The notes under the pieces are model-generated. The model had not been told where the DNA came from. It did no database searches and saw only the letters and a list, made by a program, of their open reading frames with translations. A stretch of 64,000 nucleotides of DNA. Source: Thermodesulfobacteriota bacterium. GTDB lineage: Bacteria; Desulfobacterota_D; UBA1144; Nemesobacterales; Nemesobacteraceae. Position 1 is the first letter of the stretch. Each line of letters starts with the position of its first letter. The stretch covers positions 847,511 through 911,510 of the forward strand of contig OZ241964.1 of NCBI GenBank assembly GCA_965204035.1, written 5' to 3'. This document shows positions 28,026 to 63,139 of the stretch, piece by piece. Position numbers and translations under genes: made by a program.

Positions 28026-28058
28026 TTGACAAAATGGGGGGGGGTAGAATGGTATACT
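28026..28058 (+). promoter_or_regulatory. Sigma70-type promoter elements with a G9 tract in the spacer
   Basis: TTGACA (28026-31), AAAT, G9 (28036-44), TAGAAT (28045-50), plus an extended TGnTATACT (28050-58), upstream of CDS 28109. Confidence 0.6.
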
Positions 28059-28108
28059 TAGGCATAATCAGGAAGTTCTAACAGGTAGCATATAAAAAGG
28101 GGTCTAAG

Positions 28109-31100
28109 ATGCTCTTATCCGGGAACATTGACAGAAGATCTATTCTTGCTTTGTTTGGAATAAGGTCAGGTGCGATGTCATTTTTTATTGCTGGCGTGCT
28201 TGTCCTCGTTCTGATTCTGGTCGGGTGTGGCGGTGACACCACGCCTTCCCAATCTCCCGATCCTGACAATCCTCCGCACATGGGCCCTGAACCCGATGAT
28301 CCATCGCCGGAGGGCCCCGACCCCGATGTTCCGTCGCCAGAGGATACTGACCCACCCCCGCCCCAACCCGGGATATACACGACACGTCTGGATCAATCCA
28401 TCACCTTTGACATGCAGGGCAGCGATCCTCTGAGTGACCGGATTCTGAGGCAATCACAGCAGGGGACGGTGGTTTTGAATGCCGACGGCTCCGTTACCTA
28501 CTCGCCCGTACCCGGGGCTTCGGGAGAAGACAGCTTCGAAATTGAAATTAACGGAAGCCCGAGGGAGATTACCATTTACAACAATCTCGCTTACGAAGGC
28601 CAGATTGAAGGCGGGGTGAACTCCTCCGGCAACGTTGAAGTGCTGTTAACTGGGGACGGCGTATTGGAAACCGCATCGCCGGACGCTTCCGGCAGGTTCA
28701 GGTTCTATGGGTTGGAGGACGGTGACTATGTCGTCAAGGTGCGCAAAGCGGGCTACACGTCGTCGCTTGCCCGGGCGTTCAGCCTTGATATCGGGCAGCA
28801 TGATCCTTTGCATGACAGGATCGACCGATTTGTTCTGGAAGCGATCGATTCAGATACCTTTGTCTATCACTGGGAAGAAGATCAGAGTACGGCCGGCTAT
28901 GATTACGCGGCCCATGTGAACCAACCCGTGGTCGTGGAGTTTCTGGATGAGGAGGTTGAGGTGGTCAGCGAAGCGTCAGCCGGCCAGCTCCATCATGACT
29001 ACAACATCTTGCTGGTCGATTCGGAAGACGGTTCATGGACACAAGAGCATGCCTATCGCCTTCTCGAAACCATGAAGTCCATCCCGCAGAAGCTGCGGGA
29101 CCCCCATAAGGAACAAAGCCTCCCCGCCAGCAGGTGGCTTCTTACTTCCGACCACCTGGAGGACGACATCCGGATTACACATCATGAAGGCGGAGACCAC
29201 AGGACCGTTCTCATTTCCGAAGATGCCTTCGTCAATGCCAGCCCCCGGATCGCCAGGGTTGAAGGCAAGCGAGGAGTCTACTACTCACAACGTCTGCACC
29301 ACGCGCTGGTGCGCTTCGTCACGAACAACGGCAGGGATGAAACGGCGTACGAAGAGATTTTCCGGTTGCGTTACGGCGTCACGACCCTCATACCGGATTA
29401 TGCCCAGCTCACCAGTTCCACCACTAACGAATCCGCGTCGCGCTTTCAGAAATTCCATCCCGAAGAAATCGTCCAATTGATCAATATGTTTGAGGAAATG
29501 CCCAGGGGGATGCACAAACTGCCTGAGCTGCGGTATCTGGTGCGGCGCTTGGACGGCACGCTGCACCCTATATATCCTGGTGCGCCTGCGGTGGCTTGGC
29601 CCGATTACGGCTATATCGAGTTCATGGAAAGCGGGTTCAGCGAATTTTCCCCCGCCTATGTCCATCGCCTCATCATTCATGAAAAGGCGCATTTCCTGTG
29701 GGCCCACCAGTTCGACGAGCAACTCAAGGAGGACTGGATTGAATTGGGCGGCTGGTACCACGACCCGGAAAGCTCAAGTGGCTGGTCGACGACCAAACAA
29801 ACGGAGTTTGTCTCCGCCTACGCCCACTCAGAAAATCCAAATGAGGACATGGCCGAGTCCATCGCCTACTTCATCGTGAATCCGGACAGGCTGAAATCCC
29901 GAGCCATCGGCAAGTACGAGTTCGTCCGCGACCGCATCATGCAAGGTAACATCTACATCTCCACCATCCGGGAAGACCTGACCTTTGAGGTATATAACCT
30001 GTATCCGGACTACGTCTTTCCGGGCAAGATACGGCGAGTGGATATTGCGGTCGAAGGGGATCCGGAGGACGACAAAACAATCCATGTGGAAATCGAGTTG
30101 CATGCTCTGGATGAGGAGTTGGAAGGAGCGAAACACGCCTATACGCGCATTTTCAGCGAGACCGGCACCTTTGTGGACCTGTTCCTCTACCCAAGGGATG
30201 TGAACGGCAACCAGCTGACTCAAGGCACGGTACTCAAAGGCAGCTTCACTCTCAGCAAGCACGCCAAAGCCGGTTACTGGAGGCCGGACCAGATCGTTAT
30301 CACGGATGCGGTTGGCAACGAGCGGTTCGAAGGGGTGAACGACTTTGGGTGGAGACTCTACGTCGGCAACCTGCTGGAGGATGTCACCGCTCCTGAGTAT
30401 GTGGACAATACGGCGTCACTGAGCAAGAGCGTGACGACCCTTGAAGGCCGGGAGGTTCAGCTGATTCATGCAACCTGGGAGGTGGATGAGGACACGGCAA
30501 TGCGGGGGCAGGAACCTTGTTTCGCCACCCTGAATGACGAGTTTCTGGAAACCTACAGTTATAACGGATACGGTTCCTATGATTCAGCTAGCAGGTTGTG
30601 TCAGGTGGACTTTATGATGCCTCACTACATGCCGAGTTCCGTCTACAGGATGAATTACATCATCATGGTCGACGAGGCACTGAATAGCCGGGGAGTCTAC
30701 TTCACCCATCCTGGGCACGGCCTGCGTCCGGAGCAAAGTGTCGTGGATGAAACGCCCCGGCAAATTGAACTGGTAACCAGCAATCCGGACCTCAACCCCC
30801 CTGAGTTGGATATCAACGATATTCAGATCAATGCCGAGCCCACTTATCCGGATGCGCCCAATGGCGAAACTCTGGTGACGATCACCTTTCCCGTCAGGGA
30901 CAACATATCTGGTTATGAGATCGCACACATGATGCTACGCGACCCTCAGGGCATCGAGCATTATTTCTATCACCATGCTGAAGATCGCTCCCGATTATTT
31001 CCCGAAGGTGATCCCGCCCGTTGGGCCACTCAGACCCGAACGGTGCTTCTACCGCCGGGTTCTGCGCCCGGTATTTGGGGACTGGCCGAGATGACGATTC

Positions 31101-31174
31101 AGGACCGGGCGGGCAACTTCCGGCGCTACGATTTCACCGAGATCATCCACTTCGAAGTATTAGACGAGAGTTGA
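28109..31174 (+). CDS. Large lipoprotein with Ig/cadherin-like and carboxypeptidase-regulatory-like domains and a putative zinc metallopeptidase domain
   Basis: Lipobox LVGC, Pro/Asp linker, LNADGSVTYSP, GRFRFYGLEDGDYVVKV, IIHEKAH (HExxH) and SAYA..NPNEDMAES. Confidence 0.75.
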   Translation: MLLSGNIDRRSILALFGIRSGAMSFFIAGVLVLVLILVGCGGDTTPSQSPDPDNPPHMGPEPDDPSPEGPDPDVPSPEDTDPPPPQPGIYTTRLDQSITFDMQGSDPLSDRILRQSQQGTVVLNADGSVTYSPVPGASGEDSFEIEINGSPREITIYNNLAYEGQIEGGVNSSGNVEVLLTGDGVLETASPDASGRFRFYGLEDGDYVVKVRKAGYTSSLARAFSLDIGQHDPLHDRIDRFVLEAIDSDTFVYHWEEDQSTAGYDYAAHVNQPVVVEFLDEEVEVVSEASAGQLHHDYNILLVDSEDGSWTQEHAYRLLETMKSIPQKLRDPHKEQSLPASRWLLTSDHLEDDIRITHHEGGDHRTVLISEDAFVNASPRIARVEGKRGVYYSQRLHHALVRFVTNNGRDETAYEEIFRLRYGVTTLIPDYAQLTSSTTNESASRFQKFHPEEIVQLINMFEEMPRGMHKLPELRYLVRRLDGTLHPIYPGAPAVAWPDYGYIEFMESGFSEFSPAYVHRLIIHEKAHFLWAHQFDEQLKEDWIELGGWYHDPESSSGWSTTKQTEFVSAYAHSENPNEDMAESIAYFIVNPDRLKSRAIGKYEFVRDRIMQGNIYISTIREDLTFEVYNLYPDYVFPGKIRRVDIAVEGDPEDDKTIHVEIELHALDEELEGAKHAYTRIFSETGTFVDLFLYPRDVNGNQLTQGTVLKGSFTLSKHAKAGYWRPDQIVITDAVGNERFEGVNDFGWRLYVGNLLEDVTAPEYVDNTASLSKSVTTLEGREVQLIHATWEVDEDTAMRGQEPCFATLNDEFLETYSYNGYGSYDSASRLCQVDFMMPHYMPSSVYRMNYIIMVDEALNSRGVYFTHPGHGLRPEQSVVDETPRQIELVTSNPDLNPPELDINDIQINAEPTYPDAPNGETLVTITFPVRDNISGYEIAHMMLRDPQGIEHYFYHHAEDRSRLFPEGDPARWATQTRTVLLPPGSAPGIWGLAEMTIQDRAGNFRRYDFTEIIHFEVLDES

Positions 31175-31348
31175 ACCACTTACTGTCGCGTACCAGCGGC
31201 GGCGGCCCTTGACCGTCGCAACTTTGTTGCGCCTCGTCTCAACGCCATTGGATAAATCCAGTTCCGGAAGCAATTGCTGAGTTAGAATTGACAGATCAGA
31301 CCATTATTGCTCAACTTAATTTGCCAACTGCACCAATCGGATATTTCC

Positions 31349-31376
31349 TTGCCGATTTTTTAGTTTTATGTAGAAT
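31349..31376 (+). promoter_or_regulatory. Probable promoter of the rimP-nusA-infB operon
   Basis: TTGCCG-16 nt-TAGAAT. Confidence 0.5.
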
Positions 31377-31390
31377 TTAAACCGCTTTGG

Positions 31391-31419
31391 AAAGAGTGGG
31401 TCTTTACCCGCTCTTTTTT
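31391..31419 (+). terminator. rimP leader terminator-like hairpin
   Basis: AAAGAGTGGG-tcttta-CCCGCTCTTT followed by a T-run, at the usual rimP-leader position. Confidence 0.75.
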
Positions 31420-31451
31420 GTTGAAGGGCAAGAAAGATACGGAGAAATTTT

Positions 31452-31940
31452 ATGGAAAAAGCTAACGGCAAGCTTGAAAAAGCGGTTCTGGAAGTTCTTC
31501 ACCCGATTGTCGAGGAGAATTCCTGCGAGCTTGTGGATATAAAGTATCTGAGGGAAAGAGGAGGCAGGATTTTAAGGGTATTTCTTGACAAGGAGGGCGG
31601 GGTTACAGTTGATGACTGCGCTAACGTGAGCAGGGAGCTCGGCGTGGTTCTGGATGCCTACGACATAATGCCGCAGCATTCTTACACGCTTGAGGTGTCT
31701 TCTCCAGGCCTCAGGAGGCCCCTTAACAGGCAAAGCGACTACGAGAGGTTCAAGGGAAGGAAAGTGAAGATAAAGACCACGGATCCGGTCGAGGACAGAA
31801 AGGTTTTCTCCGGGACCCTTCTTGGAATTAGAGGAGAAATGATTCTGGTGGAAGTCGACGGCCATTCCTACAGCGTGCCTTTCGGTTCCGTCAGCAGGGC
31901 GAACTTGGAAATTGATCTTGGGAAAGGAGCGAGAAAATGA
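31452..31940 (+). CDS. rimP: Ribosome maturation factor RimP
   Basis: YTLEVSSPGLRRPL motif and operon position. Confidence 0.95.
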   Translation: MEKANGKLEKAVLEVLHPIVEENSCELVDIKYLRERGGRILRVFLDKEGGVTVDDCANVSRELGVVLDAYDIMPQHSYTLEVSSPGLRRPLNRQSDYERFKGRKVKIKTTDPVEDRKVFSGTLLGIRGEMILVEVDGHSYSVPFGSVSRANLEIDLGKGARK

Positions 31941-33292
31941 TTACGGAACTGACAAGGGTTATAGATTCCGTAGGGAAGGACAAGGGCATTGACAGGGAAC
32001 GCATAATAAGCGCGGTCGAGGAAGCGGTTCTCTCCGCTGCCGAGAAGCTTCTCAAGTCAAAGAACCAGGACAAGGAATTCGACGTTTACTATAACCCCGA
32101 AGAGGGAGAGGTGGAGCTTTTCGAGTACAAGGAGGTTGTGGAGACCGTAAGCGACTCCGAAATCGAGATTTCACTCGCGGAAGCGTCCGAACTCGACCCC
32201 GAAACTGAACTTGGCGACATGATAGGCGTCAAGATAAGCCCTGAATACACCAGAATTGCCATTCACAACGCCAAGCAGAAGGTTCTTCAGAAACTCAAGG
32301 AGGCCGAAGGCAAGGTTATATACGAGGAATTTATCGGCAGGAAAGGAACCATAATCGGCGGCATAGTGAGAAGGGTTGACAGAAGGCACATAATAGTTGA
32401 TCTCGGAAGGGTTGAGGCCGTCCTGCCCCCGGAACAGCAGGTACCGAGAGAGTATTACAAGATGAAAGAAAGGATACGTGCCGTGCTTCTCGACATAAGG
32501 GAATCGCCCCGGGGGGAACCAAGGCTTATCCTTTCAAGGGCTCACGTGAGTTTCGTAATGAGGCTTTTTGAATCGGAAGTACCTGAAATCGCCGAGAATA
32601 TAGTTGAGATAAAAGCTATCTCAAGAGACCCAGGCGGAAGAACGAAAATAGCCGTGGCGTCAAACGATTCGGATGTGGACGCGGTTGGTGCATGCGTGGG
32701 AATGAGGGGCTCGAGGGTTCAGAGCATCATCCAGGAGCTCAGGGGCGAGAAGGTGGATATAGTTCCCTGGTCAGAAGACCCCGCCCGCTACGTCTGTAAC
32801 GCCCTCTCTCCGGCTGTCGTGAACAAGGTTGTGATTGACGAGAACAGCCGCTCTATGGAAGTCATAGTTGATGATGACCAGCTCTCTCTCGCCATCGGGA
32901 GAAAGGGACAGAACGTAAGGCTGGCATCGCAGCTTACCGAGTGGAAGATAGATATAAAAACTGAGTCTAGGGTCAAGCAGGAACAGCAGGAAGTGCTCTC
33001 CCTTCTTACAAGCTTGCCGTCTGTAAGCGAGGTTACGGCAAGTTTGCTTTATAATGACGGATTTTACTCTCTTGAACACATAGCTTTTTGCGAACCGGAC
33101 GTGCTCATGAAGGTTGGAAGTCTCAACGAAGACGAGGTCTCCACGCTTCAGAAAGCAGCCCGCGTGGCGCTTATGGAGAAACTTGAGGAGATGCCTGTTG
33201 AGACTGAAGCCGAAGAGGTTTCGGACGCGGAAGAGGTCAAGATATCGTCACCGACCGGGGCAGAGGTGCAGGATTCGCAGGAAGACAAGTAG
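31937..33292 (+). CDS. nusA: Transcription termination factor NusA
   Basis: S1 and KH domains, GACVGMRGSRV and LAIGRKGQNVRLA. Confidence 0.97.
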   Translation: MITELTRVIDSVGKDKGIDRERIISAVEEAVLSAAEKLLKSKNQDKEFDVYYNPEEGEVELFEYKEVVETVSDSEIEISLAEASELDPETELGDMIGVKISPEYTRIAIHNAKQKVLQKLKEAEGKVIYEEFIGRKGTIIGGIVRRVDRRHIIVDLGRVEAVLPPEQQVPREYYKMKERIRAVLLDIRESPRGEPRLILSRAHVSFVMRLFESEVPEIAENIVEIKAISRDPGGRTKIAVASNDSDVDAVGACVGMRGSRVQSIIQELRGEKVDIVPWSEDPARYVCNALSPAVVNKVVIDENSRSMEVIVDDDQLSLAIGRKGQNVRLASQLTEWKIDIKTESRVKQEQQEVLSLLTSLPSVSEVTASLLYNDGFYSLEHIAFCEPDVLMKVGSLNEDEVSTLQKAARVALMEKLEEMPVETEAEEVSDAEEVKISSPTGAEVQDSQEDK

Positions 33293-33339
33293 CAAAAACC
33301 ACCGGCCGGCCTCCTCAGGAGAGCGGGTTTTTTGGGAAT

Positions 33340-35904
33340 ATGCCTAAAGTCAGAATACATCAGATAGCCAAAGAGCTGGGAATAACCAGCAAAGAGGTAA
33401 TAGATCAGAGCGCAAAGCTTGGAATGAAAGTTACAAGTCACCAGAACGTAGTCTCGGAAACGGATGCCGAGAGAATAAAAAAGGCGCTTGTCAGCATCCC
33501 GGAGGAAAATTCTTCAGAAACGGCGGAAGAGCAGAAGGAAACCGTAAAGGTTTTCAAATCTGAAACGGGCGACTTCGTCGAAAGAAGAAAGGGTTCCAGG
33601 GTTGTAAGAAGAAGAAAGAAAGTTGTGAAGCCGGAGCCCGAACCCGAGCCTGTGGAAGCAGAAGCCGTTCCGGCCGCCGGGGAACCTGCGGAAATCAAGC
33701 CGGAGCCCGAGATTCCCGCCACACCCGAGCCCGTGGAAGCTGAAGCGTCCCATGCTCTAGGCGCCGAGAGCGAAGCAATGCCCGAGGAGGCGCCTGAAGT
33801 CGAGCAGCTGCCCGAAGCCGAGGTTCCGCAGGAAGATGGCATTGAACTCAAGCCCGAGCCGTCTCCCGAACCTGAAAAGGTCATTGAGGAAGAGGATGAC
33901 AAGGAAAAGCCAAAGCAGAAGAAAAAAGCCAAGAAGAGCAAGCCTCTTAAAGAGGAGATACATGATGAGGAGACCCTGGAGCAGCTTAAAAGAGCGTTTC
34001 GGACCAAGGTCCCGAGCAGAAAGGAATACGTAATACAGAACAAAAAGCCCAAACTGAGGCAGAATTTTGACGGAGCTGGAAGAAACAGGGGGGGTTATCA
34101 GGCCGATGGCCAAGACACCCAGCTTATTCCTGCTTTCCCGGCCCATACTTCGAAAAGAAACATCAAGGTCGGCGAAACCGTAGTAGTTTCCGATCTTGCG
34201 AAAATGATGAGCGTGAAGGCGTCGGAAGTCGTTAAGAAACTCATGACCATGGGTACGGGCGCAACGATCAACCAGTCAATTGACAGCGATACCGCCGAGC
34301 TTATTGCCGATGAATTCGGTTTTAACGTAACCGTTGAGAGATTTGTCGAGGAGGACCTGCTTTTTGATCAGGATGAGTCGGGCGATGCGGAGAAAATGCC
34401 ACGTCCGCCGGTCGTTACGGTCATGGGACATGTTGATCACGGCAAGACCACACTGCTTGATTCTATAAGGGAAACCAATGTTGTCGCGGGAGAAGCCGGT
34501 GGAATAACGCAGCACATAGGCGCCTACGCGGTGAACATAAAGGATTTAACCATAGTTTTCGTGGATACGCCCGGGCACGAGGCGTTTACTTCAATGAGGG
34601 CCCGCGGCGCAAGCATAACGGATATAGTGATTCTGGTAGTGGCGGCGGATGACGGAGTAATGCCCCAGACGGTCGAAGCGGTTAACCACGCGAAAGCGGC
34701 CGGAGTTCCGATTATAGTAGCTATAAACAAAGTCGACAAGGAAGGTGCCGATGTCGAAAAAATCAGGAGGGAACTCTCCGAGATAGATCTCATATCGGAA
34801 CAGTGGGGAGGAGACACTCTTTTTGCCGAGGTTTCAGCGAAAAAGAAAAAGGGCATAAGTGAACTCCTTGAACTTGTCCTGCTCCAGGCCGATATACTCG
34901 AACTCAAGGCGTCGCCCGATAAAAAAGCAAACGGCGTGGTGGTGGAAGCTGAGCTTGACAAGGGCAGGGGAGCAGTCTCCACGGTCATAGTCAAGGAAGG
35001 GACTCTTCGGGTCGGAGATTGCGTCGTGTCAGGGGTTCACAGCGGGAAAATAAGGGCCCTTACCGACGACAAGGGCAAAACGGTAAAAAGCGTAGGTCCT
35101 TCAATGCCCGTTAAGATCATGGGTCTCTCGGGAGTTGCCGAAGCCGGCGAGAAATTCCACGTAGTGAAGGATGAGAAGACATCCAGAGAGATAACTTCTC
35201 ACCGTCTCGATAAGATCAGATCCCGCAAGGTGATCGCCACTCCGAAGCTTTCGCTCGAGGACCTTTTCAGTTCCATTGAAAACGAGGAAGCCAAGGAGCT
35301 GTCCCTCATTATAAAGGCAGATACCCAGGGCTCGGTTGAGGCTCTCAGGGAGTCTCTGGAGAAGCTCTCTACCGAGAAGTGCAGGGTAAAGATCGTTCAC
35401 TCAGGAGCCGGAGGCATAAACGAGACGGATGTGGTTCTTGCAAGTGCCTCAAACGCGGTGGTGGTAGGGTTTAACGTCCGCCCGGATGCGAACGCGCTTA
35501 GGATTTCTGAAAAAGAAGGGGTCTCTCTTGAGCTTCATTCAATAATTTACGACGTGGTAAACCGCGTAAAAAGCGCGATGGAGGGACTTCTCGAGCCCAT
35601 TAGCAAGGAAGTCGTGGTGGCCCACATGGACGTAAAGGAGCTTTTCCACGTGTCAAGAGTGGGAACTATCGCGGGATGCATGGTTTCTGACGGCAAGGTA
35701 AGCAGGGACAACAGCATCAGAGTGGTTCGCGACGGCACGGTTGTCTTTGACGGCAAGGTAAGTTCTCTCAGGCGTTTTAAAGAGGACGTGAAGGAGGTTC
35801 CCTCGGGCTACGAATGCGGTATAACGATAGAGAATTTCAACGACGTGAAGCAGGGAGACGTCTTCGAACTCTACAAGCTTGAGGAGATAAAGCAGGAGCT
35901 TTGA
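33340..35904 (+). CDS. infB: Translation initiation factor IF-2
   Basis: MGHVDHGKTTLLD, GGITQHIGA, DTPGHEAF and INKVD motifs. Confidence 0.98.
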   Translation: MPKVRIHQIAKELGITSKEVIDQSAKLGMKVTSHQNVVSETDAERIKKALVSIPEENSSETAEEQKETVKVFKSETGDFVERRKGSRVVRRRKKVVKPEPEPEPVEAEAVPAAGEPAEIKPEPEIPATPEPVEAEASHALGAESEAMPEEAPEVEQLPEAEVPQEDGIELKPEPSPEPEKVIEEEDDKEKPKQKKKAKKSKPLKEEIHDEETLEQLKRAFRTKVPSRKEYVIQNKKPKLRQNFDGAGRNRGGYQADGQDTQLIPAFPAHTSKRNIKVGETVVVSDLAKMMSVKASEVVKKLMTMGTGATINQSIDSDTAELIADEFGFNVTVERFVEEDLLFDQDESGDAEKMPRPPVVTVMGHVDHGKTTLLDSIRETNVVAGEAGGITQHIGAYAVNIKDLTIVFVDTPGHEAFTSMRARGASITDIVILVVAADDGVMPQTVEAVNHAKAAGVPIIVAINKVDKEGADVEKIRRELSEIDLISEQWGGDTLFAEVSAKKKKGISELLELVLLQADILELKASPDKKANGVVVEAELDKGRGAVSTVIVKEGTLRVGDCVVSGVHSGKIRALTDDKGKTVKSVGPSMPVKIMGLSGVAEAGEKFHVVKDEKTSREITSHRLDKIRSRKVIATPKLSLEDLFSSIENEEAKELSLIIKADTQGSVEALRESLEKLSTEKCRVKIVHSGAGGINETDVVLASASNAVVVGFNVRPDANALRISEKEGVSLELHSIIYDVVNRVKSAMEGLLEPISKEVVVAHMDVKELFHVSRVGTIAGCMVSDGKVSRDNSIRVVRDGTVVFDGKVSSLRRFKEDVKEVPSGYECGITIENFNDVKQGDVFELYKLEEIKQEL

Positions 35905-35920
35905 TCTCTGGATTTTTTAA

Positions 35921-36211
35921 ATGGTAGTGGGCATAGCCAGATTTGAACTCTACATGTCGGGCAACAGGTCTTTGAAAGATAAAAGACGCCTGGTAAAAAG
36001 CCTTGTGGAAAGGGCGAGGTCAAAATTCCCGAGTCTCTCATTTGCTGAAGTTGATTCCCTGGATCTAAAGGACAAAGCCACCATAGGGCTTGGGTATGTT
36101 TCCAACGATGCTTCTCTTGTGAATTCCGTTCTCGAGAAGGTGACTTCCTATATAGAGAGCACGGGGAATTTCCGCATGGGTGAAAAGGAGATGGAAATCA
36201 TCCATTTCTAA
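35921..36211 (+). CDS. DUF503 (YlxP-like) protein
   Basis: SLKDKRRLVKS motif; lies between infB and rbfA. Confidence 0.88.
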   Translation: MVVGIARFELYMSGNRSLKDKRRLVKSLVERARSKFPSLSFAEVDSLDLKDKATIGLGYVSNDASLVNSVLEKVTSYIESTGNFRMGEKEMEIIHF

Positions 36212-36221
36212 GCGACCGAAG

Positions 36222-36575
36222 ATGTCTCACAGTTACAAAAGATCCGCGAGGATATCCGATCTTCTCATAAAGGAGATATCCGAGATGCTGGTGCGCGGCA
36301 AGATCAAGGACCCCAGGGTGTCGTCGGCAAGCATAACGGCTGTGAGGGTTACAGACGACATGGGCCACGCGAAGGTCTTTTTTACCTCTTTTGATGAAAG
36401 CTCCGATACCCAGGAGATGCTTGAAGGACTGAGGAACGCTACCGGCTACATAAGAGGCGTCCTCTCAAGGAGATTAAGAATAAAGAAAATCCCGAACATA
36501 GAATTCGAGTACGACGGCCTGGTGGAGAAGCGGGCGAGAATTGATGAACTGATAAAGGGTTTGTCTGATGGATAA
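36222..36575 (+). CDS. rbfA: Ribosome-binding factor A
   Basis: IKDPRV, VRVTDDMGHAKVF and IPNIEFEYD motifs. Confidence 0.93.
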   Translation: MSHSYKRSARISDLLIKEISEMLVRGKIKDPRVSSASITAVRVTDDMGHAKVFFTSFDESSDTQEMLEGLRNATGYIRGVLSRRLRIKKIPNIEFEYDGLVEKRARIDELIKGLSDG

Positions 36576-38441: not shown

Positions 38442-38470
38442 TCAGGCAAGGGTCTAGGAGGAAGTAGTTT

Positions 38471-38740: not shown

Positions 38741-38766
38741 GGAAGTAATATTTTGGAGGAAATGAA

Positions 38767-40875: not shown

Positions 40876-40884
40876 CCCCCACAG

Positions 40885-49028: not shown

Positions 49029-49122
49029 TTCTACCTCCAATTAAATATCAGTAACAAATATAAAAAATATTTACGCGGTTTCAAGTTTTAAACCACGGGT
49101 TAAACTGTTTTGCGAAAAGACA

Positions 49123-52689: not shown

Positions 52690-52797
52690 GCGGGCGCGAG
52701 AAAACACTTTTTTCAGCGGACATTACTTGACAATTTGTGAAAAATTCCGAGGATTATCGTTGAACGCGCAGCCCGCGTAATCTTATATGAACTTGCC

Positions 52798-53628: not shown

Positions 53629-53750
53629 TCCGACTCCAGGGCTTTGGCTGTTTTTCCTCTGACTGCGCAGTACGGGTCCGAAACATGCTGTGCCCCAGGT
53701 TCCTCCGCAAAGGTTAAACTGTATATTGCGATGTAACAGGAGGCGATATA

Positions 53751-53996
53751 ATGACCGAATCTTCCATAACGAAAAAAGGACAGACGACCCTGCCGAAATC
53801 TGTTCGTGAATTCCTTGGGCTTCGGGCCGGAGACAAGGTGCGTTATTTCATTGCTGACGATGGAGTGCGTATTATGCCTGTGCGGAGCGTTAAACGACTG
53901 TGCGGCGCACTGCAGTACGATGGTTCTACGGTCACCCTTGAGGAGATGGAGCGGGCTATCGCGGAGGGGGCGTGTGAGGGAAATGATCGCGCTTGA
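53751..53996 (+). CDS. AbrB/MazE-type antitoxin
   Basis: SSITKKGQTTLPKSVREFLGLRAGD; AGGAGG RBS. Confidence 0.88.
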   Translation: MTESSITKKGQTTLPKSVREFLGLRAGDKVRYFIADDGVRIMPVRSVKRLCGALQYDGSTVTLEEMERAIAEGACEGNDRA

Positions 53997-54147
53997 TGCC
54001 AACATTCTGGTCCGTTATCTGACATGCGACGGCACCAAACAGTTCTAAGTGGTGGGGACCCTCTTGGAATCGCTCACTTTGTATGCATCAGACCGGAAGT
54101 TCTCACGGCTTGAGGGTGTTTCACTGTTAGACGGCCACGCAAGCTGA
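53983..54147 (+). pseudogene. Decayed VapC/PIN toxin (nonsense codon plus large internal deletion)
   Basis: Reads MIALDANILVRYLTCDGTKQF*VVGTLLESLT, joined in frame to a VapC-like C-terminus LYASDRKFSRLEGVSLL. Confidence 0.75.
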
Positions 54148-54173
54148 ATTGCTCCCTGAAGAGTTATCGCACC

Positions 54174-54929
54174 CTAAAACTTTTTCCAGAAGTCTATTCC
54201 CAGCGCGTCAAATATTTTCTGACCGTAGATATTCAGGTAGTGAATCTCATTTGAAAACATCATTATTCCTATGATTACAAGTCCCGAGCCTATTGCGTAC
54301 TTATAATACGGGTAATACCTTCTGATGCTTCCAAAGGATCTCATGGCGCCGTTAAACGCAAGACCGACCAGCATGAACGGTATGCCGATCCCGAGTGAGT
54401 AAACCGCGAGCAGCCCAACCGCGTTTAGCGTTCCTTCAACCGTGCTTGCGTAAAGGAGTATGGAACCGAGAATAGGTCCTACGCATGGCGTCCAGCCAAA
54501 GCCGAACGCCAGGCCGAGAATATAAGTTCCGAGGAGATTTCCCCTTTCCCGAGGAAGAGAGATTTTACGTTCTTTCTCAAGAAACGGGATCTTTACGATC
54601 TCCATTACGAATATTCCGAAAAGGATTATGAATATTCCGGCTATCCTGAGCAAAAAAGTCTTGTTGCCCGAGATCAATCCCCCAAGCTGGGAGGAGAATG
54701 CGCCTAGGGAGATAAATACGGTTGAGAATCCAAGTATGAAGATAAGACTTGGTACGACAACCCTTGAGAATTTGGGCAGGTTCCGAGTGTCTGAAAGATC
54801 CTCGTACGAGAGATTCGTTACCACTGAAAGGTAGCCCGGCATAAGCGGAAGAATACAGGGAGAAAGAAACGCGATCACTCCGGCGAAAAAAGAAGCAACT
54901 ATTCCCACATCTACGATTTCGGGATTCAT
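54174..54929 (-). CDS. ccdA: Cytochrome c biogenesis protein CcdA (DsbD TM domain)
   Basis: FLSPCILPL and FGWTPCVGPIL motifs. Confidence 0.92.
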   Translation of the reverse strand: MNPEIVDVGIVASFFAGVIAFLSPCILPLMPGYLSVVTNLSYEDLSDTRNLPKFSRVVVPSLIFILGFSTVFISLGAFSSQLGGLISGNKTFLLRIAGIFIILFGIFVMEIVKIPFLEKERKISLPRERGNLLGTYILGLAFGFGWTPCVGPILGSILLYASTVEGTLNAVGLLAVYSLGIGIPFMLVGLAFNGAMRSFGSIRRYYPYYKYAIGSGLVIIGIMMFSNEIHYLNIYGQKIFDALGIDFWKKF

Positions 54930-55639
54930 GCCGGGTTTCTCTCCCCGTTGTTCTCGGTACGGATTTCTTGATCTTTCAAAAGAATTTGCTCCAGTCTGCG
55001 CCCAAGATTCATGTCCCTTGTCATTATATCCTTTATGTTTATATCTTTTTCCTCATCAATATCCGAAAGTTCTCTCATGACGGCGTGGCGCAACCCGTTT
55101 TCCCTCATGCGTCTTTCAGTTTCCTTAAATACTCGGGCGCTGCTCCATTGTATTTCCTGAAAAACCGCGTCCATTTTCCTGCATAGCCCGAGGAGGTAGT
55201 ATCCCCCGTCGGTTGCCGGACCCAGCACCGCTTCAAATTGCCCTCTCGAGAGCAGCGAGAACGCTGTTTCCAGATCTTCTTCGGTTATCATCACGCAGTC
55301 TGTGCCTATGATGACGACATTTCTGAATCCCAGTGAAAAACATTTCGCAAACGCGCGGGACATTTTCTGCCCGAGAGAACCTGTCCCCTGTGCAAAAAAG
55401 AAGGCCTCTTTGTCTCCCAGCCACTCGAGGACTTCTTTTTTTCTTTTCTTGGGAGCGTAGAAAAAAAAAGTCGCCCAGTTCTCCTGACCTGAAAAGGAGT
55501 TGGCGACGAAATCTGCCACCTCACGGTAGAGTTCCGCGGCCCTCAGGTCCCCTATGTCTTTTCCCAGACGCGTCTTTACTTTTTTCGTTTCCGGATACTT
55601 AAGAAAAACGATCAGGGCGTTATCGTTTTTTCGCGACAT
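54926..55639 (-). CDS. TIGR04282/DUF2064-type glycosyltransferase-like protein (arsenosugar-cluster associated)
   Basis: VKTRL, LGQKM..AF, IIGTDC, LGPATDGGYYLLG, WSS and DID motifs. Start at MSRKND. Confidence 0.85.
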   Translation of the reverse strand: MSRKNDNALIVFLKYPETKKVKTRLGKDIGDLRAAELYREVADFVANSFSGQENWATFFFYAPKKRKKEVLEWLGDKEAFFFAQGTGSLGQKMSRAFAKCFSLGFRNVVIIGTDCVMITEEDLETAFSLLSRGQFEAVLGPATDGGYYLLGLCRKMDAVFQEIQWSSARVFKETERRMRENGLRHAVMRELSDIDEEKDINIKDIMTRDMNLGRRLEQILLKDQEIRTENNGERNPA

Positions 55640-55656
55640 TGCGCAGAGCCCCGGAA

Positions 55657-56751
55657 TCAGGATACCGTCTGTCCGCCGCAACTGCTTCCGCCCCCGGCGG
55701 TGCAGCCGAAACAGTGAACGCCGAATCTTATCTTTCTTCCGATCATCTTGCGGAGGTCGAAATTGAATATGGTAAGACCCCCGCTGCCGTTCCGGCATTG
55801 CATATCAAGCATCTGGTTAAAGTCGCAGTCGTAGATTTTTCCGTCGTGACTTACGCTTAAGAGGTTCCGGCACATTATGCCGTCAACGGCTTTGGGATTA
55901 AAGGCGTTTACGAGCTTTTCGATGTATTCTTCGTAGGCGTTCTGTCTTTTCAGTTCCTGCTCGAACCTGTTGATCGGCATATTGGTAATGGTGTATAGAT
56001 TATCGAACCTTATGCCGTAATTCTTTTTGAGCTTCGCCTTGAAATCCGCTTCAAGACTCCTCTGGTCCGGGGGGAGGAAGGTCCCGACGGGGTTGTATAC
56101 TAGGTTGAGTTTGAGTTCTCCGCCCCCGTAGCCTTCGCTGTTAAGCATTCTCAGGGACTCTATGCTTTTTTCGAAAACCCCTTCGCCCCTCTGCTTGTCC
56201 GTGAAGTAGCTGCTGTAATATGGAAGCGAGGATATGACCTCGACGCGGTTTTCGGCGAAAAACCCCGGTATGTAAGCTTTCTTCTCTCCCGTCCGGGGGT
56301 TTCCGTCGAGAGTGACGGTCAGGTTATGCCTTACCATCACGTGTTTACCAAGCCTTCTGGCTTCCCTTACGAAATAGTCAAAATGGGGGTTTAGTTCCGG
56401 AGCTCCGCCGGTCAGGTCAAGATTTTTAATGCAGTCGTTTTCGCTCAGTATTTCAAGACATCTGTCTACGGACTCAAGGCTCATCTGTTCCGTTCTCCAA
56501 GGCGAGGAATCCACGTGACAGTGGGTGCAGGCCTGGTTGCAGAGCTTTGTTATGTTTACCTGCAGGGTTTCAACCGTAACAGGGTTGATATTGAGGCCCT
56601 GGTCGGTCAGTTTCCGGGAAAAATCATGATTGTTTATTTTGGCTTTCTCTTCGGTTTTCGTTCTTTGGCTCATTTTGAAACCATCCAGCGGGGCAGGTTC
56701 TATTATCTGCGTTTTTTCTTGAACTATCCAGTACCGTTTGGAAGTTCCCAA
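55657..56751 (-). CDS. arsS: ArsS-type radical SAM protein with Cys-rich C-terminus (start may be 56673)
   Basis: CNQACTHC, DLTGGAPE, YDCDFNQML and HCFGCTAGGGSSCGG motifs. Confidence 0.85.
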   Translation of the reverse strand: MGTSKRYWIVQEKTQIIEPAPLDGFKMSQRTKTEEKAKINNHDFSRKLTDQGLNINPVTVETLQVNITKLCNQACTHCHVDSSPWRTEQMSLESVDRCLEILSENDCIKNLDLTGGAPELNPHFDYFVREARRLGKHVMVRHNLTVTLDGNPRTGEKKAYIPGFFAENRVEVISSLPYYSSYFTDKQRGEGVFEKSIESLRMLNSEGYGGGELKLNLVYNPVGTFLPPDQRSLEADFKAKLKKNYGIRFDNLYTITNMPINRFEQELKRQNAYEEYIEKLVNAFNPKAVDGIMCRNLLSVSHDGKIYDCDFNQMLDMQCRNGSGGLTIFNFDLRKMIGRKIRFGVHCFGCTAGGGSSCGGQTVS

Positions 56752-56790
56752 GATTTTCTGCCGAGGCCTCTTTGTTTCCCGGTTCCGTTT

Positions 56791-57126
56791 CTAAAGGGCG
56801 CGGTTTTTTTTCAACGTGTTGTGCATCTGGATCGCATGGATGAGTTTTATGCCGGCCGACATTGATGCGGCAACATGTACCGCTTCGGTCATCTGTTCGG
56901 GGTCCGCTCCCGTCTCAAGACACTGCGTGGTGTACGCGTCTATGCAGTAAGGACATTTTTCGGTGTGCGCCACGGCCAGGGCTATGAGCGCCTTTTCCCT
57001 TTTCGTAAGCGCCCCTTCTTCGCCCGTTGCCGAGTTGTAGTACTCGAAAAACTTATCCATGAGATCTTCTCCAAACTCTCCGATCTCGGAGAATCTCTTT
57101 AGATCTTCGGGGTTATAATAATCCAT
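56791..57126 (-). CDS. AhpD/carboxymuconolactone decarboxylase-like protein (ArsS-associated peroxidase-like)
   Basis: GALTKREKALIALAVAH..KCPYCIDAY, EQMTEAVHVAA. Confidence 0.85.
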   Translation of the reverse strand: MDYYNPEDLKRFSEIGEFGEDLMDKFFEYYNSATGEEGALTKREKALIALAVAHTEKCPYCIDAYTTQCLETGADPEQMTEAVHVAASMSAGIKLIHAIQMHNTLKKNRAL

Positions 57127-57227
57127 CTTTCTTTCTCTCCCGTCTCTTTGTTCTGAACATGCTCTCTTTATAAAGGGTCCTCTCGAAAGTAAAATACCAC
57201 AATATCTTATGAATCAGGAAAGCGGTA

Positions 57228-57896
57228 ATGATAAAAGCGGTCATATTCGATTTTGACGGAATAATAGTTGACAGCGAGCCCCTGCACCTCAGAGCTTTTC
57301 AGAGAACTGTGGAGACTCTCGGATTAAAACTCTCGCCCACGGACTATTACTCGCGGTATCTTGCCTGCGATGACAAGACTTTTTTCAGAAAGTTCCTTGA
57401 GGATAACGGACAACAGGGCACGGAGGGGGAGATCGTGCGGCTTGTGGAAGAAAAAGGCGTCTGTTTTGAAGAAATGATGGGGGAGGGCATAAGAATTTTC
57501 CCTGGGGTTGTCGAGTTCCTGGAAACCATCCGGGGCAAATTTCATACGGCGATAGGTTCGGGCGCTTTAACCGGAGAGATTAATCTCATATTGGGGAGAA
57601 GGGGTCTTTCCGAGTTTTTCGATTTTGTAATAGGGGCCGATGATACGCAAAACCCCAAGCCGTCCCCCGAGGTCTACCTTAAATGTCTTGAGCAGCTCAG
57701 GAGAGATTATGACGGCGCTATAACCGCCGGGCAGTGCGTCGTGTTTGAAGATTCTCCCCACGGCGTTCTGGCGGCCAAAAGAGCCGGGATGAGATGTATC
57801 GGGATTACCAACTCGTGTTCCGGTGGCGAACTCAAGCTTGCTGACCGAGTAACAGAAAGTTTCTTTGAAGTAGTTGATGATTTCCCCGAATTTTGA
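57228..57896 (+). CDS. HAD-family phosphatase
   Basis: FDFDGIIVDS, KPSPEVY and FEDS motifs. Confidence 0.9.
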   Translation: MIKAVIFDFDGIIVDSEPLHLRAFQRTVETLGLKLSPTDYYSRYLACDDKTFFRKFLEDNGQQGTEGEIVRLVEEKGVCFEEMMGEGIRIFPGVVEFLETIRGKFHTAIGSGALTGEINLILGRRGLSEFFDFVIGADDTQNPKPSPEVYLKCLEQLRRDYDGAITAGQCVVFEDSPHGVLAAKRAGMRCIGITNSCSGGELKLADRVTESFFEVVDDFPEF

Positions 57897-58150
57897 ATAT
57901 AGTTCCACCTTCCCGCAGAATCTCTTTTAATGCTTTTCCCTTCTGCCTGCGTTTAAGCTTCTCTATCTTCTCCACCCAAAGCGCCTTAACTGTAAAGAGT
58001 GCGTTACATGACCGGTTCTTAAGCGCGCGAGTTGGCTGGCTGAACAGAGATTTGAAATGCACATTTATCTTGGTTACATTGATTGCATATACCTAGACTG
58101 ACCGACATATTACTGATATGTGAAGCCTGTAATCAGGAGGTAAGTGTTTC

Positions 58151-60531
58151 ATGAAGAATTCAGCCTATAGAAGCAACCCGGTTCAACGGGAACTTAGTTC
58201 TACCCCCCCCCCCATTTTTATTCCGTAGTTCATAATCAGAGAACATTTTCATGCTTTATCATAGTTGCGCTGCTCGGCGCGCTCTCGCCGTTCGCTGCCG
58301 CGCCCGCTGCGGCACAAACTCCCGCGGTCCAATGGGCCCAAACCGCTTATTCGGTAACGGAAACTGACGTCGATCAGTCCCTTGACCTCACGATCAATAT
58401 CAATCCGGTGATACCAGGACCCAACAACAGGGGCTTCTTAGTTTCTGTATTAGGTACCAGCACGGCCACCCAAGGGATCGATTGGGACTTTTCCACTGGA
58501 TGCAGTTCCTTGCCCCACAGTACCGGTACAGCGACTTGCACCCTGACCATCAAAGGGGACGATATCAGTGAGGGGAGCGAGACCATCGTACTGAGGTTGG
58601 TGGGCGTAGGCTCCGCCTACAATATAGGCAGTAATGCCGTAACCACAGTTACGATCACCGACGACGACCCGCCCACGGTCTCTCTTTCTGCGGCTCCCAA
58701 CCCTGTGACGGAGGGTTCATCCGTAACCGTAACGGCGACGCTGTCGTCGTCGGCGAGCAACGTAAGCATCCCGGTGACGCTCACGGCGGGCACGGCGGAG
58801 CCGGACGACTACGGCACGCTCACGTCCATCAGCATCTCAAGCGGCCAGACCTCAGGTACCGGCACGATAACCACGGCGCAGGACACGGACACAGAAGGCT
58901 ATGAGAGGTTCACGGTGTCTCTGGGCACGCTTCCCTCGGGGGTGATCGCCGGCACATCCAGTTCAGTTGTGATCAGGATCAGGGATGACGACGTAAGTTA
59001 TCCCCCGCCCGCCCTGCGGGAGCTCTCCCTTTTCGCCTCGGACAAAGGACGCTTCGCGAGCCGCGGGAATTATGTAGATCTTGAACCGACCTTCCACGAA
59101 GACACCCTCAACTACACGGTGCGCGTAGACGACTGGGCGGGGTATATAAGAGTGGGGGCCGAAGCCCGAGACAGTAACCCTGAAGACCCGACGAAGGTAT
59201 TCATCAACGGCGAACTGAAGGGACCTTCACCTTCACGTCCTCAAGATCCTGACCCCTCTGCTAGCTCCTCTATTTGGGTGGAACTGAAGGATGTCACGCC
59301 GATCGAAATCGTGGTGAGGAATCCGCTCGGGGAGTCGCAGACCTACACGGTGAGAGTGCTTCGGGGCAGTGCCGAGGTATCTCCCGCGCAGACTCCGCCC
59401 GATCAGCCCCCCAACTCCGAGCCTCCGCCCGATCAGACTCCGACGACGGGAGGAAGCGGCACCCCGGGAGGCAGCGGTTCTCCTTCCGGTGGCGGAGGAG
59501 GCGGAGGTGAACCGCAACTGTCTTCAGACGCTTCCCTGAGCGGACTCCGCGTCTCTGAAGGAGACCTGATGTTCAGCCCCGGGACGCGGGACTACGAAGT
59601 GACGGTGGGTCTTGAGGTAAGCGAACTCTCACTCACCCCAGAGGCCGGTCACCCCGACGCGGAAATAGAGATGAACGGCGTCTCCGCGCAAAGCGGAGAG
59701 GAAACGCGGATTGATCTCGGGGAAGACGAAACCGTCTCGATAACTATAACGGTCACCGCTCCCGACGGAGAGACTGCGATAACCTACACGGTAAGGGTTA
59801 CCCGGGGGGAGGAGTGCGGGATAAACGACAAGGAGGCCCTCACAAGGTTCTACGGGGCCACGGGGGGAGACGCGTGGACAATGAAAGACAACTGGAACAC
59901 CGAAAATCCTCTCGGGGAGTGGTACGGAGTAAGCGCCGATGAAAACGAAAAAGTAATATCCCTTCTTCTGGCTGACAACAATCTTGAGGGAGAGATTCCC
60001 AGGGAGTTTCTGTGCCTCGCGGAACTCAAGGAACTCGCCCTCTGGGGCAACGGGGGGCTTTCGGGGCATGTACCCGAAAACCATACGCTGGCGACAGAGA
60101 GGGCCGCGCTTCTTTACATTGCGCGCGCGCTTTCGCTCAACGCCGTGTGGTTCGATACTTACGAAGACCCCTATTACGACTTCCCGGAGTGGCATTACGG
60201 GGTTACGACGGATGACGGAAGGGTGACTGGGCTTTCCTTCTCTGGGGAAGACATAAGCGGAGTGATTCCCGTAATTCTCTTAAGACAGCTAAAAGAGCTT
60301 GAGACTCTTGACCTTGAGTGCTCGGGCATCACCCTTGGCGGAGACGCGCCCGAGGGGGTTAAGGTAAAGGAGGGCTGCGAAGAGGAAGAGGACCTGCCGG
60401 GCGGAGGGGGAGGCTGCGCTCTCGGAGACCAGGGGAGCGGGGGAGCGCCAGGCATCCTGCTTCTGCTGCTTGTGGCTGTGGCGTACGGGAGAGGGGCTTT
60501 TCTGAAGGGGCGGCGCGGAAGAAACCTCTGA
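58151..60531 (+). CDS. Surface protein A (Calx-beta-like, cadherin-like beta-sandwich, LRR module, C-terminal anchor), frameshifted at a C11 tract
   Basis: AGGAGG RBS and ATG at 58151. The signal peptide IIVALLGALSPFAAAPAAA/QT is in the main frame upstream of the ORF-track start (58408). C12 or C9 would fuse the two frames. Confidence 0.75.
58203..58213 (+). repeat. C11 homopolymer in the 5' coding leader (OFF phase)
   Basis: ttctaCCCCCCCCCCCattttt; the ATG frame ends at TAG shortly afterwards (..STPPPIFIP*). Confidence 0.85.
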
Positions 60532-60837
60532 GAAGAGAGAATTCATCCGACAGGTAATCCGGGGATGTCGGGAAGCGGATTCGTTGCGGCGAAGCGCCGG
60601 GATTTTAACCGGCCGGCAAGTTTGAGGCGTGCGCGCTGTTGAGCACCCGCATATGTATCAAGGGTTTCCCCGAGTGTGAAAAAACTTCTGCCTCGGGATT
60701 TTCTGTTTCTGTTCAGAGCTTGACCGGATGCGGGAATTCTGAGAGGCGCCCGAAAGTCCTCGGGCGACCAATTTGAATTTATTCCCGCTTGCCGTTATAT
60801 TGGTGATCCAATGTTAGAAAGGAGGTTAGACAGAAAG

Positions 60838-63139
60838 ATGAACAAAACAGATAGAAATCCGTTACTGATGACTGAGAAAGGGGCTACCCCCCCCCCCATT
60901 TTGTCTCCCGCTAAGTTCTGATTCCCCCGGTTTTTCCCGCAAGAGCCCTAAGGCACTTTCCCTTTTTCCCGGATCGTCCTGCGGTCGGGCCGCGTCCGCG
61001 TGGCGCCGCCTCGCCCTCCTCCCCGTCCTCGCGCTGCTGGCGGGCGCGCTGTGCCTGTTCGAGGCCGCACCCGCCAAAGCGCAGACCGTGCCCGGCAGCA
61101 TGTCCGTCGATGGGTTCCACCCAATGGGACCCGGACGCATGAAGATCGCCGAGGGCACATCGATCACCTACGGCATCGTGATCCACCAGCCGCCGACCGC
61201 GGATCTGACCATCACGCCGCGACACCACAACGTCCGACCGGACGGCAGCGACTACCCCAACGTCGACACCAGTCTGCTCACGATCCACAACGCGGTCACC
61301 TGGAAAGCCAACCTCTCCAACCACTATGCCTCGGACTGGCAGCAGTCCAAATCGGTCAGGCTCACCGCGGTGGACGACAACGAGTGCAAGTCTCCGCCCG
61401 GCAACCGGTACTGGATCAGGCACCACGGCAGCGGCGGCGGTCCCAACTGGGGCGGGTGGGAGCGGCAGGACCGGCACCATGGCCTGGTGATTTCGATCGA
61501 AATCATCGACGACGACTGCAAATATCTGGCCGCTTCCCCGGGCCAGGTGTATCCGGAGGAGGGCGCCAGCGCGACCTACACCGTGCGTCTGAAGGAGCCG
61601 CTCGAGGACGCCGCGTACATTTCCCCGCGCATCAGCGTCCCCGGCGACAGCGACCCCGGCGCGATCACGGTCTCTCCCGAGCGGATCCGGGTCGAAGCGG
61701 GAGACACGAGCCCGCAAACGTTCACGGTCAGCGCCGGAAGGGACGCGAACTCCCGTAACGAGGTCCTGGTTGTCGACCACAGCGTCGACTCGCCGGAGGT
61801 CCCGGCGGATTACCTGGGCGCCCGGGTGACCGTCATTGTCCAGGACGAGCAGAACGCGGCGAGGAAGCAGGAGCGCGACCCGCTGACCGTGACCGGTCTT
61901 GCGCTCACGGCCGGTTCGGAGGCGGTGGCGCTGAGCCCGGCCTTCTCGACGAATGTGCTGTCGTACCGGGCGGAGGTTCCGGCGGGGACGACGAGCGTGT
62001 CGCTGGCGCCGCACTGGAGCGGCGGGGAGAGCGTGTTCGCGGGCTCGCGCCGGGGCGGCACGACCTTCACGCGCCCGGCGCGGGTGCGGCCCTCGGGGAC
62101 GGCGGTCGCGCTGGCGCTGGCGCCGGACGGCGGCGCGACCGAGCTGTGGGTGATGGCGAGCGGCGGTTCGGGCGGCATGACGACCTACCGCATCGAGGTG
62201 ACCGAGGCGCAGACTTCCCTCGCACAGACTCTGACGACGGGAGGAGACGGCACCACGGGCGGCGGTGGCGGTTCTCCTTCCGGTGGTGGCGGCGGGGGCG
62301 GAGCCCCTCCCACTGGCGGAGACAGTCCTTCGCCCGAAGAACCCCAAGAGCCTGAACAGACTGATGAGTGCGGAGATAACGACAGGGAAAACCTTGTGAG
62401 CTTCTACAACGCTACGGACGGAGACACCTGGCTTGAGAAAACAAACTGGAACTCCTCCGAACCTCTCGACCAGTGGTATGGAGTAGACACAGATGAAGAC
62501 GGAGAGATTGTATCCCTTCGTCTTGCGGATAACAATCTCTCCGGACAGATGCCGACAAGAGAACTTCTGTGTCTTAATGAAGACACGGAACTTAAGGAAC
62601 TTGCCCTCTGGGGCAACGAAGATCTCTTGGGAGATGAGCCGGAGGGGTTTGTGTTTGCCATTGAGAGAGCCGTGTTGAGAGACATAGCGGAAACGATTGA
62701 CCTTAACCCCGAGTGGTTTGAAGACTATGAAGACCACCTTTTTGACTTCGAGGACTGGCACGAGGGGGGAGTTATGACGGATGAGGAAGGAAGGGTGAGG
62801 GAGCTTGATTTCACCGAAGAAGGTATAACCGGAGAGATTCCGAGGAGTGTTTTTAAGCTTGAAAACCTCACAGTCATAAAGACGGGATGTGAAGTAACTC
62901 TTGAGGCTCCCGAGCCAGAGGGAGTGAGCGTGATGATGGCTGAAGACTGCCCGGAGGAGATGGAACCTGAAGACATGGAGGAAGGGGATACGTCAGCGTC
63001 CGGAGGCGGGGGCTGCGCCCTGGGTCAAGAGGATTCTTCTGTATCCGGCTTCGGCTTGTTCCTCGTGACTATTCTTGTCTTCGCGGCGCTTGTGAGAAAA
63101 AGGGTACTGGTTTCCCGTCTGGCTGGGAACAGGCTGTAA
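60838..63139 (+). CDS. Surface protein B (GC-rich beta-sandwich passenger, LRR module, C-terminal anchor), frameshifted at a C11 tract
   Basis: AAAGGAGGT RBS and ATG at 60838. The signal peptide RRLALLPVLALLAGALCLFEAAPAKA/QT is in the main frame upstream of 61088. C10 or C13 would fuse the two frames. Confidence 0.75.
60887..60897 (+). repeat. C11 homopolymer in the 5' coding leader (OFF phase)
   Basis: gctaCCCCCCCCCCCattttgtc; the ATG frame ends ..ATPPPILSPAKF*. Confidence 0.85.

Follow-up and report, generated by a model that had tools for sequence, protein, structure and literature searches.

Three sites in a 64,000-nucleotide (nt) stretch of a Thermodesulfobacteriota bacterium genome (contig OZ241964.1 of assembly GCA_965204035.1, positions 847,511 to 911,510; hereafter the window) carry a long cytosine run in the same short setting, CTA-Cn-ATTTT, which raises the question of whether one reusable element has been copied to all three, or whether the shared motif has a more general cause. 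Our analysis indicated that the sites probably belong to a larger collection of hypermutable G/C homopolymers (contingency loci) spread over the genome, which are of two kinds, one within coding leaders and one within promoters. As a reading of sequence this is well supported by the anatomy of the tracts and by comparison between copies and species. The class of mechanism has long been known: the tracts are of the same type as the homopolymer contingency loci described in Neisseria and Campylobacter, and they do not represent a new mobile element.

All three sites were present on the forward strand exactly as first described: a promoter copy in which the motif is inverted, tcttgacaaaat-G9-tagaatgg (G9 at 28036-28044), and two coding copies, agttcta-C11-atttttattccg (C11 at 58203-58213) and ggggcta-C11-attttgtctccc (C11 at 60887-60897). 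They were the only matches to CTA-C9-N0-2-ATTTT in the window, and none of 100 dinucleotide-preserving shuffles held any match. Both coding copies lie about 50 nt behind a start codon with a strong ribosome-binding site and break its frame, as the original prediction stated. The first leader (58151-58228) consists of ATG 58151, preceded at 10 nt by AGGAGG (58135-58140), 17 codons and the C11 run 52 nt from the ATG, and as assembled is closed after 25 codons by a premature TAG (58226-58228). One extra C joins the ATG to the 771-codon open frame behind the run (58214-60531), which encodes a signal-peptide-like stretch 12 residues in, Calx-beta and Cadherin-like domains, and a C-terminal tail made up of GGGGC, a hydrophobic segment and basic residues. 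The second leader (60838-60921) has AGGAGG (60820-60825) 12 nt upstream of ATG 60838, 16 codons and the C11 run 49 nt from the ATG, and stops after 27 codons (60919-60921); one C fewer joins it to a 746-codon open frame (60898-63139) with a signal-peptide-like stretch, a Cadherin-like domain and the same type of tail. A sigma-70 consensus scan placed promoter-like hexamers upstream of each leader (TTGAAA-17-TACATT at 58052-58080 and TTGAAT-17-TATATT at 60773-60801). The third copy does lie between TTGACA (28026-28031) and a -10-like hexamer, TAGAAT (28045-28050); the two hexamers are separated by aaat and the G9 run, giving a spacer of only 13 nt as assembled. This run ends 64 nt upstream of a gene (28109-31174) for a predicted lipoprotein of 1021 amino acids (aa) with an LVGC lipobox, whose Pfam matches were below cut-off except for Big_9. 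An Rfam scan of the window returned no families, so an RNA element does not explain the sites.

Only one other G/C run of at least nine was found in the window, a G11 run (21936-21946, forward strand) in the gene for an S8 subtilase lipoprotein (open reading frame [ORF] 21073-23268, LAGGC lipobox); as assembled it keeps the reading frame, falling near residue 288 within the Peptidase_S8 match. All four long runs in the window, counting the 1021-aa lipoprotein and the two leader-cassette genes, are thus at genes with an export signal visible in translation, in line with the proposal that such runs mark secreted or surface-protein loci. That proposal was too exclusive at the scale of the genome, where the link is strong but runs also occur at genes for a methyltransferase, HsdS, transposases and a permease, and near ftsK.

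The genome is a single contig of 2,009,148 bp with 51.5% G+C, and long G/C runs are far more frequent in it than chance would give. Extrapolation from short runs predicted about 0.74 runs of at least nine in the whole genome, and 41 were observed. Their length distribution is bimodal with a mode at 11 (2755 runs of 5, 530 of 6, 57 of 7, 6 of 8, 6 of 9, 3 of 10, 22 of 11, 7 of 12, and one each of 13, 14 and 16), whereas A/T runs decay smoothly with length. The long runs are concentrated at the 5' ends and promoters of genes for exported proteins: 21 of the 41 fall within the first 100 nt of a long ORF, a compartment that makes up 2.8% of the genome (binomial 4e-22). When the same placement was tested on about 5 independent cassettes among about 25 groups of runs, p was ~6e-4. 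Both parts of the expectation, an excess far beyond chance and placement at exported-protein 5' ends and promoters, were therefore borne out. No tri- to heptanucleotide repeat arrays were found in the genome, and dinucleotide repeats were limited to two, (CT)6/(AG)6. Runs of at least 10 also occurred in 29 of 31 sampled genomes of the genus and order, this genome included. UvrB of this bacterium was at most 59% identical (54-59%) to the other named records compared, a comparison that left near relatives aside.

The larger class comprises 23 runs situated 16-88 nt downstream of a start codon, all of them poly-C on the sense strand. As assembled, the long frame is already in register with the start at 2 loci (genome positions 1469852 and 1583070), whereas 12 would have to lose one base and 9 to gain one; a one-base change restores the long frame at 19 of the 21 loci that are out of frame. 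The two in-frame genes show what a joined product looks like. They encode proteins of 1174 and 820 aa with an N-terminal extension of about 35 residues that contains a proline run, followed by a typical signal peptide, Cadherin-like (PF12733) and LapA/Calx-beta-type repeats, an LRR-like region and the GGGGC/hydrophobic/basic tail. We propose that the coding runs would act as translational switches, with sense-strand poly-C placed 16-88 nt after the start in an extension ahead of the signal peptide. Slipped-strand mispairing at replication would add or remove one C and so move the long frame into or out of register with the ATG, and out of register the product would lack the signal peptide. In the window, the first in-frame starts of the long frames in the out-of-frame state (58408 and 61088) lie past the signal-peptide region, so any product made from them is predicted not to be exported. 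As the run is translated ahead of the signal peptide, length changes that keep the frame would presumably leave the mature protein unaltered.

A simpler account of so many broken frames is that the genes are decaying pseudogenes and the runs mutational scars. The 21 of 23 loci out of frame would fit this, as would two short remnants at 262678 and 643092, in which only 49- and 65-codon frames follow the run. Against it, the frame behind the run is open for 480-2561 codons in the other 21 of 23, with signal peptides; the break is always at the run; the C-terminal anchor is intact in 17 members of families A, B and C (defined below); and cassette and run are retained together in other species. 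We consider general decay scarcely credible. A uniform programmed ribosomal frameshift was ruled out, as the shifts needed go both ways.

The tail itself is a marker of the protein family. An ad hoc pattern for it found 19 ORFs of at least 250 codons in the genome, 16 of which carry a 5' poly-C run. Written as GGGGC(A/V/T)(L/I)(G/A) followed by hydrophobic and then basic residues, it occurs in the window at 60349-60528 and 62957-63136 and in 17 other ORFs of this genome. Its layout is similar to that of the GlyGly-CTERM, MYXO-CTERM and JDVT-CTERM sorting signals, but none of these curated NCBIfam models reached its cut-off (13.7 bits against 15.5, 9.9 against 20 and 9.8 against 27, respectively). 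The tail may be an undescribed sorting signal.

The smaller class consists of about five runs in this genome between TTGACA and a TAG-type -10 hexamer. Here a transcriptional switch is envisaged, in which poly-G fills the spacer so that run length would set the distance between the hexamers and hence promoter strength. The region orthologous to the window copy is intergenic and downstream of uvrB, and its alignment allowed the history of the run to be followed. The orthologous promoters of two sister species (G015 and G011) have an 18-nt spacer with no homopolymer and TAGGAT as the -10 hexamer; that of a further genome (G014) reads atgcta-G6 in a 12-nt spacer. The window copy reads aaat-G9 (13 nt), and a paralog at genome position 422761 reads aaatgga-G8 (15 nt). 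TTGACA and TAG(A/G)AT were kept in all four species, and on this conservation, from which the function of the hexamers is inferred, they appear to be a real promoter that is older than the run, which itself apparently expanded in situ from a GGG or GGGG seed. About four further runs of this type elsewhere in the genome have spacers of 13, 15 and 19 nt, and lie upstream of genes for proteins that include a collagen/pentapeptide-repeat protein, an S41 protease lipoprotein and a Mu-type transposase. In relative G041, four paralogous promoters of the form TTGACA-aaat(at|c)-G10-TAG(G|A)TT have spacers of 16 or 15 nt and precede genes for signal-peptide proteins of 1012-1293 aa, the three complete ones of which end in a Gly-Cys/hydrophobic/basic tail. 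Because these promoter tracts stand ahead of proteins with a like tail, the same superfamily appears to be under coding-tract control in one species and under promoter-tract control in another.

If the tracts switch, their lengths should differ where the surrounding sequence does not, and such differences were seen between paralogs, insertion sequence copies and species while the flanks were conserved. In family B of the coding cassettes the upstream flanks are 94% identical and the runs are 11, 13, 10, 12 and 11 long. Two copies of an insertion sequence with a DDE_Tnp_1 transposase (at 1658224, locus L138, and 1967014) match at every position for 161 nt ahead of and 1509 nt behind a run located about 100 nt upstream of the transposase start, and differ only in having G10 or G9. 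The family C cassette has C9, C9, C14 and C11 in four species. The T run behind the C run also varies, from T4 to T6, among members of families A and B. Beyond these differences, we infer that tract length may switch reversibly within a population and that expression would follow it.

Evidence from sequencing runs was limited to Logan contigs. In runs X12 and X13 one contig each bridges the 58203 tract with C11 and no gap, and in X14, from the same sample as X12, contigs are interrupted at this tract (58195/58204). At 60886, one X14 contig carries one C more than the assembly; it may stem from a C12 paralog at 1585832 with near-identical flanks, and hints at length variation at best. A search of JGI metagenomes for natural length variants, using a pattern for the leader behind the run, gave three loci, none of which was related to this genome by BLAST. 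In 11 marine, sponge and coral runs 5-11% of sampled words were present, which was uninformative on habitat. A separate observation concerns the second coding gene, where summed contig depth over 60946-62349 was up to ~300 times that of the flanks (41,729 against 130 in X13), with many contigs at 90-99% identity; the repeat-domain region is thus present in very many variant copies in those samples.

Several observations weigh against switchable tracts. Only 2 of the 23 coding loci are ON as assembled, against an expectation of one third (P = 0.007). The runs also vary suspiciously little in length: 22 of the 41 here have exactly 11 bases and 23 of the 26 sampled from G041 have exactly 10, which could reflect an equilibrium length or an effect of base calling or assembly. 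Because of this uniformity the ON and OFF calls, and with them the in-frame deficit, are provisional. Minority lengths cannot show in contigs, the form in which the sequencing-run evidence came. MutS (904 aa, with its mismatch-binding domain) and MutL (615 aa) are intact, and a global mutator background is therefore absent; Neisseria likewise lacks one, its mismatch repair being intact. For the promoter class, a sigma-70 scan allowing 16-18-nt spacers found no promoter at 28026-28050 as assembled. The 13-nt spacer there is 4-5 nt below the optimum, so one-step length changes would not switch it on, and the G014 ortholog has only G6 with its 12-nt spacer. The 15 nt at 422761 and the 13, 15 and 19 nt elsewhere in this genome are also outside the 16-18-nt range.

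The uniform lengths and the scarcity of in-frame loci would also fit if the tracts were real but were not heritable DNA switches, either because consensus errors hide in-frame lengths or because slippage of RNA polymerase or the ribosome gives constant low expression. Consensus sequences built from long reads are prone to errors at long homopolymers, and tRNA-Pro tends to slip by +1 in CCC-C contexts. Four observations speak against this alternative: lengths of 12, 13, 14 and 16 were also called, so that there is no hard cap up to 16; the shifts needed go in both directions (a base lost at 12 loci, a base gained at 9), for which one programmed frameshift cannot account; X12 and X13 independently gave C11 at 58203; and recoding cannot account for the promoter-class tracts. 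We regard it as improbable, and heritable contingency loci as the better reading of both classes.

The original prediction went further, and took CTA-Cn-ATTTT to be a single reusable, orientation-independent element that had been placed both in coding leaders and, inverted, in promoters. A scan for the motif, which that prediction proposed, was partly favourable. It occurred 15 times in this genome against none for a reversed control, and CTA-C8+...ATTTT was found in 14 of 36 genomes of the genus (own included), with a total of two matches to the reversed control. Moreover, the motif is present at loci without evident mutual homology (families A and C, a methyltransferase gene at 593576 and the promoter at 28036), and the coding cassettes are mosaics with the run at the joint. 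The motif is not general, however, as the dominant 3' flanks in relative G002 differ (tcaaaatt, atctctc, agtacta). When the promoter copy is read as poly-C and compared with the coding cassettes, identity ends after 3-5 nt on the left, where family C matches best, and after 5-8 nt on the right, where the best match is family A; beyond these stretches, identity within the 12-nt flanks does not exceed background. Orthologous promoters without the run already carry TTGACAAAA and the TAG-type -10 hexamer, the run looks grown from its seed, and the other promoter-type runs have only the TAG of the -10 hexamer in common. Terminal repeats or target duplications were not noticed, although no formal test for them was made. 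With flank similarity ending within 3-8 nt and the promoter flanks existing without a run, the claim of one element did not hold up, and we judge such an element very improbable. Instead, as far as these comparisons go, the conserved flanks are accounted for without an element: around the coding copies they correspond to the leaders of paralogous families, and around the promoter copy to promoter hexamers.

What these comparisons leave without an explanation is a preference of long runs for adenine on both sides. Read as poly-C, 34 of the 41 runs of at least nine have an A immediately 5', compared with 20-29% of runs of 4-8, and 24 of 41 have one immediately 3', compared with 19-25% of runs of 4-8, most of which precede G. 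In five relatives (G002, G013, G041, G043 and G047) an A precedes 98 of 124 runs of at least nine. Paralogy inflates these A-Cn-A counts, but the trend nonetheless spans unrelated loci. It is also a point in favour of a reusable element.

The coding leaders fall into families that we defined on 110 nt upstream and 60 nt downstream of the run. Family A has eight copies, including the window site at 60887, family B five, family C about five, including the window site at 58203, and family D is a pair. Conservation spans the promoter-like hexamers, the ribosome-binding site and the first 16-18 codons, and by eye the family A members differ by conservative and synonymous codon changes. The families are in turn related by halves. 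Families A and B have the part behind the run in common (87% identity over 60 nt) but not the part ahead of it (56%), whereas families B and C have the part ahead in common (68% over 100 nt) but not the part behind (55%). The cassettes, for example those at 58041-58273 and 60777-60957 in the window, therefore look like mosaics with the homopolymer at the joint. The CTA-Cn-ATTTT motif common to 58203 and 60887 would thus be due partly to paralogy and partly to the mixing of cassette halves. The family C cassette is also found with its run in other species. The gene 5' of the 58203 locus was kept in all five relatives examined, at 83-85% identity, and in the three of these that have the cassette it is situated elsewhere, so no orthologous tract could be compared at 58203. 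An antisense promoter within the coding cassettes was considered and rejected, as the reverse complement, GAGACA...TAGCCC, was by eye a poor match. In one relative the family C cassette (L117, G031:C13:50600-51968, at ~445-525) holds two tracts, a G10 in the ribosome-binding region just 5' of the ATG and the usual C9 52 nt after it.

The set resembles several described systems. In Neisseria, the opa genes form a surface-protein multigene family with CTCTT pentamers in the coding region for the leader and signal peptide, and they switch independently by frameshift, with few on at once. As in opa, each copy of a surface-protein multigene family here has its own tract in the leader region; unlike in opa, a poly-C homopolymer forms the tract and precedes the signal peptide, and the proteins are unrelated, with cadherin-like, Calx-beta and LRR-like repeats and a GGGGC C-terminal anchor. 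In Neisseria porA and opc and in Bordetella fim, a homopolymer of G or C that separates the -35 from the -10 hexamer tunes transcription through its length. Campylobacter lacks MutS/MutL mismatch repair. The position of the G run between -35 and -10 hexamers is what our promoter class has in common with porA, opc and fim (for the Bordetella tracts, see the abstract of PMC1891110), but unlike in those genes the 13-nt spacer of the window copy is too short as assembled, and the G041 paralogs have 15-16 nt. The abstracts of two reports on the Campylobacter jejuni poly-G phasome describe a small genome with a few dozen G/C tracts, intragenic and intergenic, at surface-structure and restriction-modification genes (PMC6321876, PMC8355987). 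The present genome is likewise small, with a few dozen G/C tracts as essentially its sole repeat class; it differs from Campylobacter in its intact MutS and MutL and in having most tracts within the conserved leader cassettes of one large protein family. For a single gene the closest likeness is Gardnerella nanH3, whose poly-C run of 8-14, ~100 nt from the start and beside the signal peptide, varies in length within colonies (10.1101/2020.09.16.300947). Its protein is secreted and C-terminally anchored, and automated gene calls omit the signal peptide whenever the tract puts the frame out of register. Poly-C near the start of a secreted, C-terminally anchored protein and beside its signal peptide is also the predicted arrangement here; the difference is that nanH3 stands alone and has its run directly behind the signal-peptide region, whereas here more than 20 genes have the run before it. 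We found no paper joining such tracts with metagenome-assembled genomes, in a literature search that did not extend to supplements and is not proof of absence.

What sets this genome apart is the size of the set, the leader cassettes and their mosaic structure, intact mismatch repair and the A-Cn-A preference. Nearly everything known about homopolymer phase variation comes from host-adapted pathogens, and here a G/C tract set of Campylobacter size is present despite intact mismatch repair, with most tracts on one large family of anchored surface proteins. Were switching confirmed, random variation of the cell surface would count as an ordinary part of the lifestyle of this lineage, and automated annotation would systematically truncate or miss the surface proteome of such genomes. 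The more than 20 near-identical leader cassettes would also offer a natural system for the effects of flank and length on slippage rates. A more far-reaching possibility is that the genus has a modular switch system, in which one anchored surface-protein superfamily is served by interchangeable promoter, ribosome-binding site and leader cassettes that recombine at the homopolymer, with coding tracts in one species and promoter-spacer tracts in its sister, and in which the A-Cn-A rule reflects a lineage-specific bias in tract origin or retention beyond paralogy alone. Taken as a whole this is a tentative idea that we think rather unlikely to be correct in full.

Tracts were also found at genes outside the main protein family. 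A gene for an N6/N4 DNA methylase with an HNH domain (locus L131) has a C16 run at 593576-593591, 23 nt after the start and out of frame, and a type I HsdS gene (locus L144, G000:C1:1382704) has a C9 run that is in frame; together they point to phase-variable methylation and possibly a phasevarion. Surface proteins and restriction-modification genes are the usual make-up of a phasome. The family D tracts are at an LRR/PKD pair, and in-frame tracts are present in genes for fn3/LRR and Spondin_N/cadherin proteins. Further tracts belong to an S41 protease lipoprotein, a xanthine/uracil permease and two kinds of transposase, and one is located 48 nt upstream of ftsK. In relative G013 (contig C1), several pairs of long runs lie about 200 nt apart on opposite strands, for example at 1194122/1194314, 1461267/1461488, 1498191/1498396 and 1538696/1538917, as if divergent genes each had a tract.

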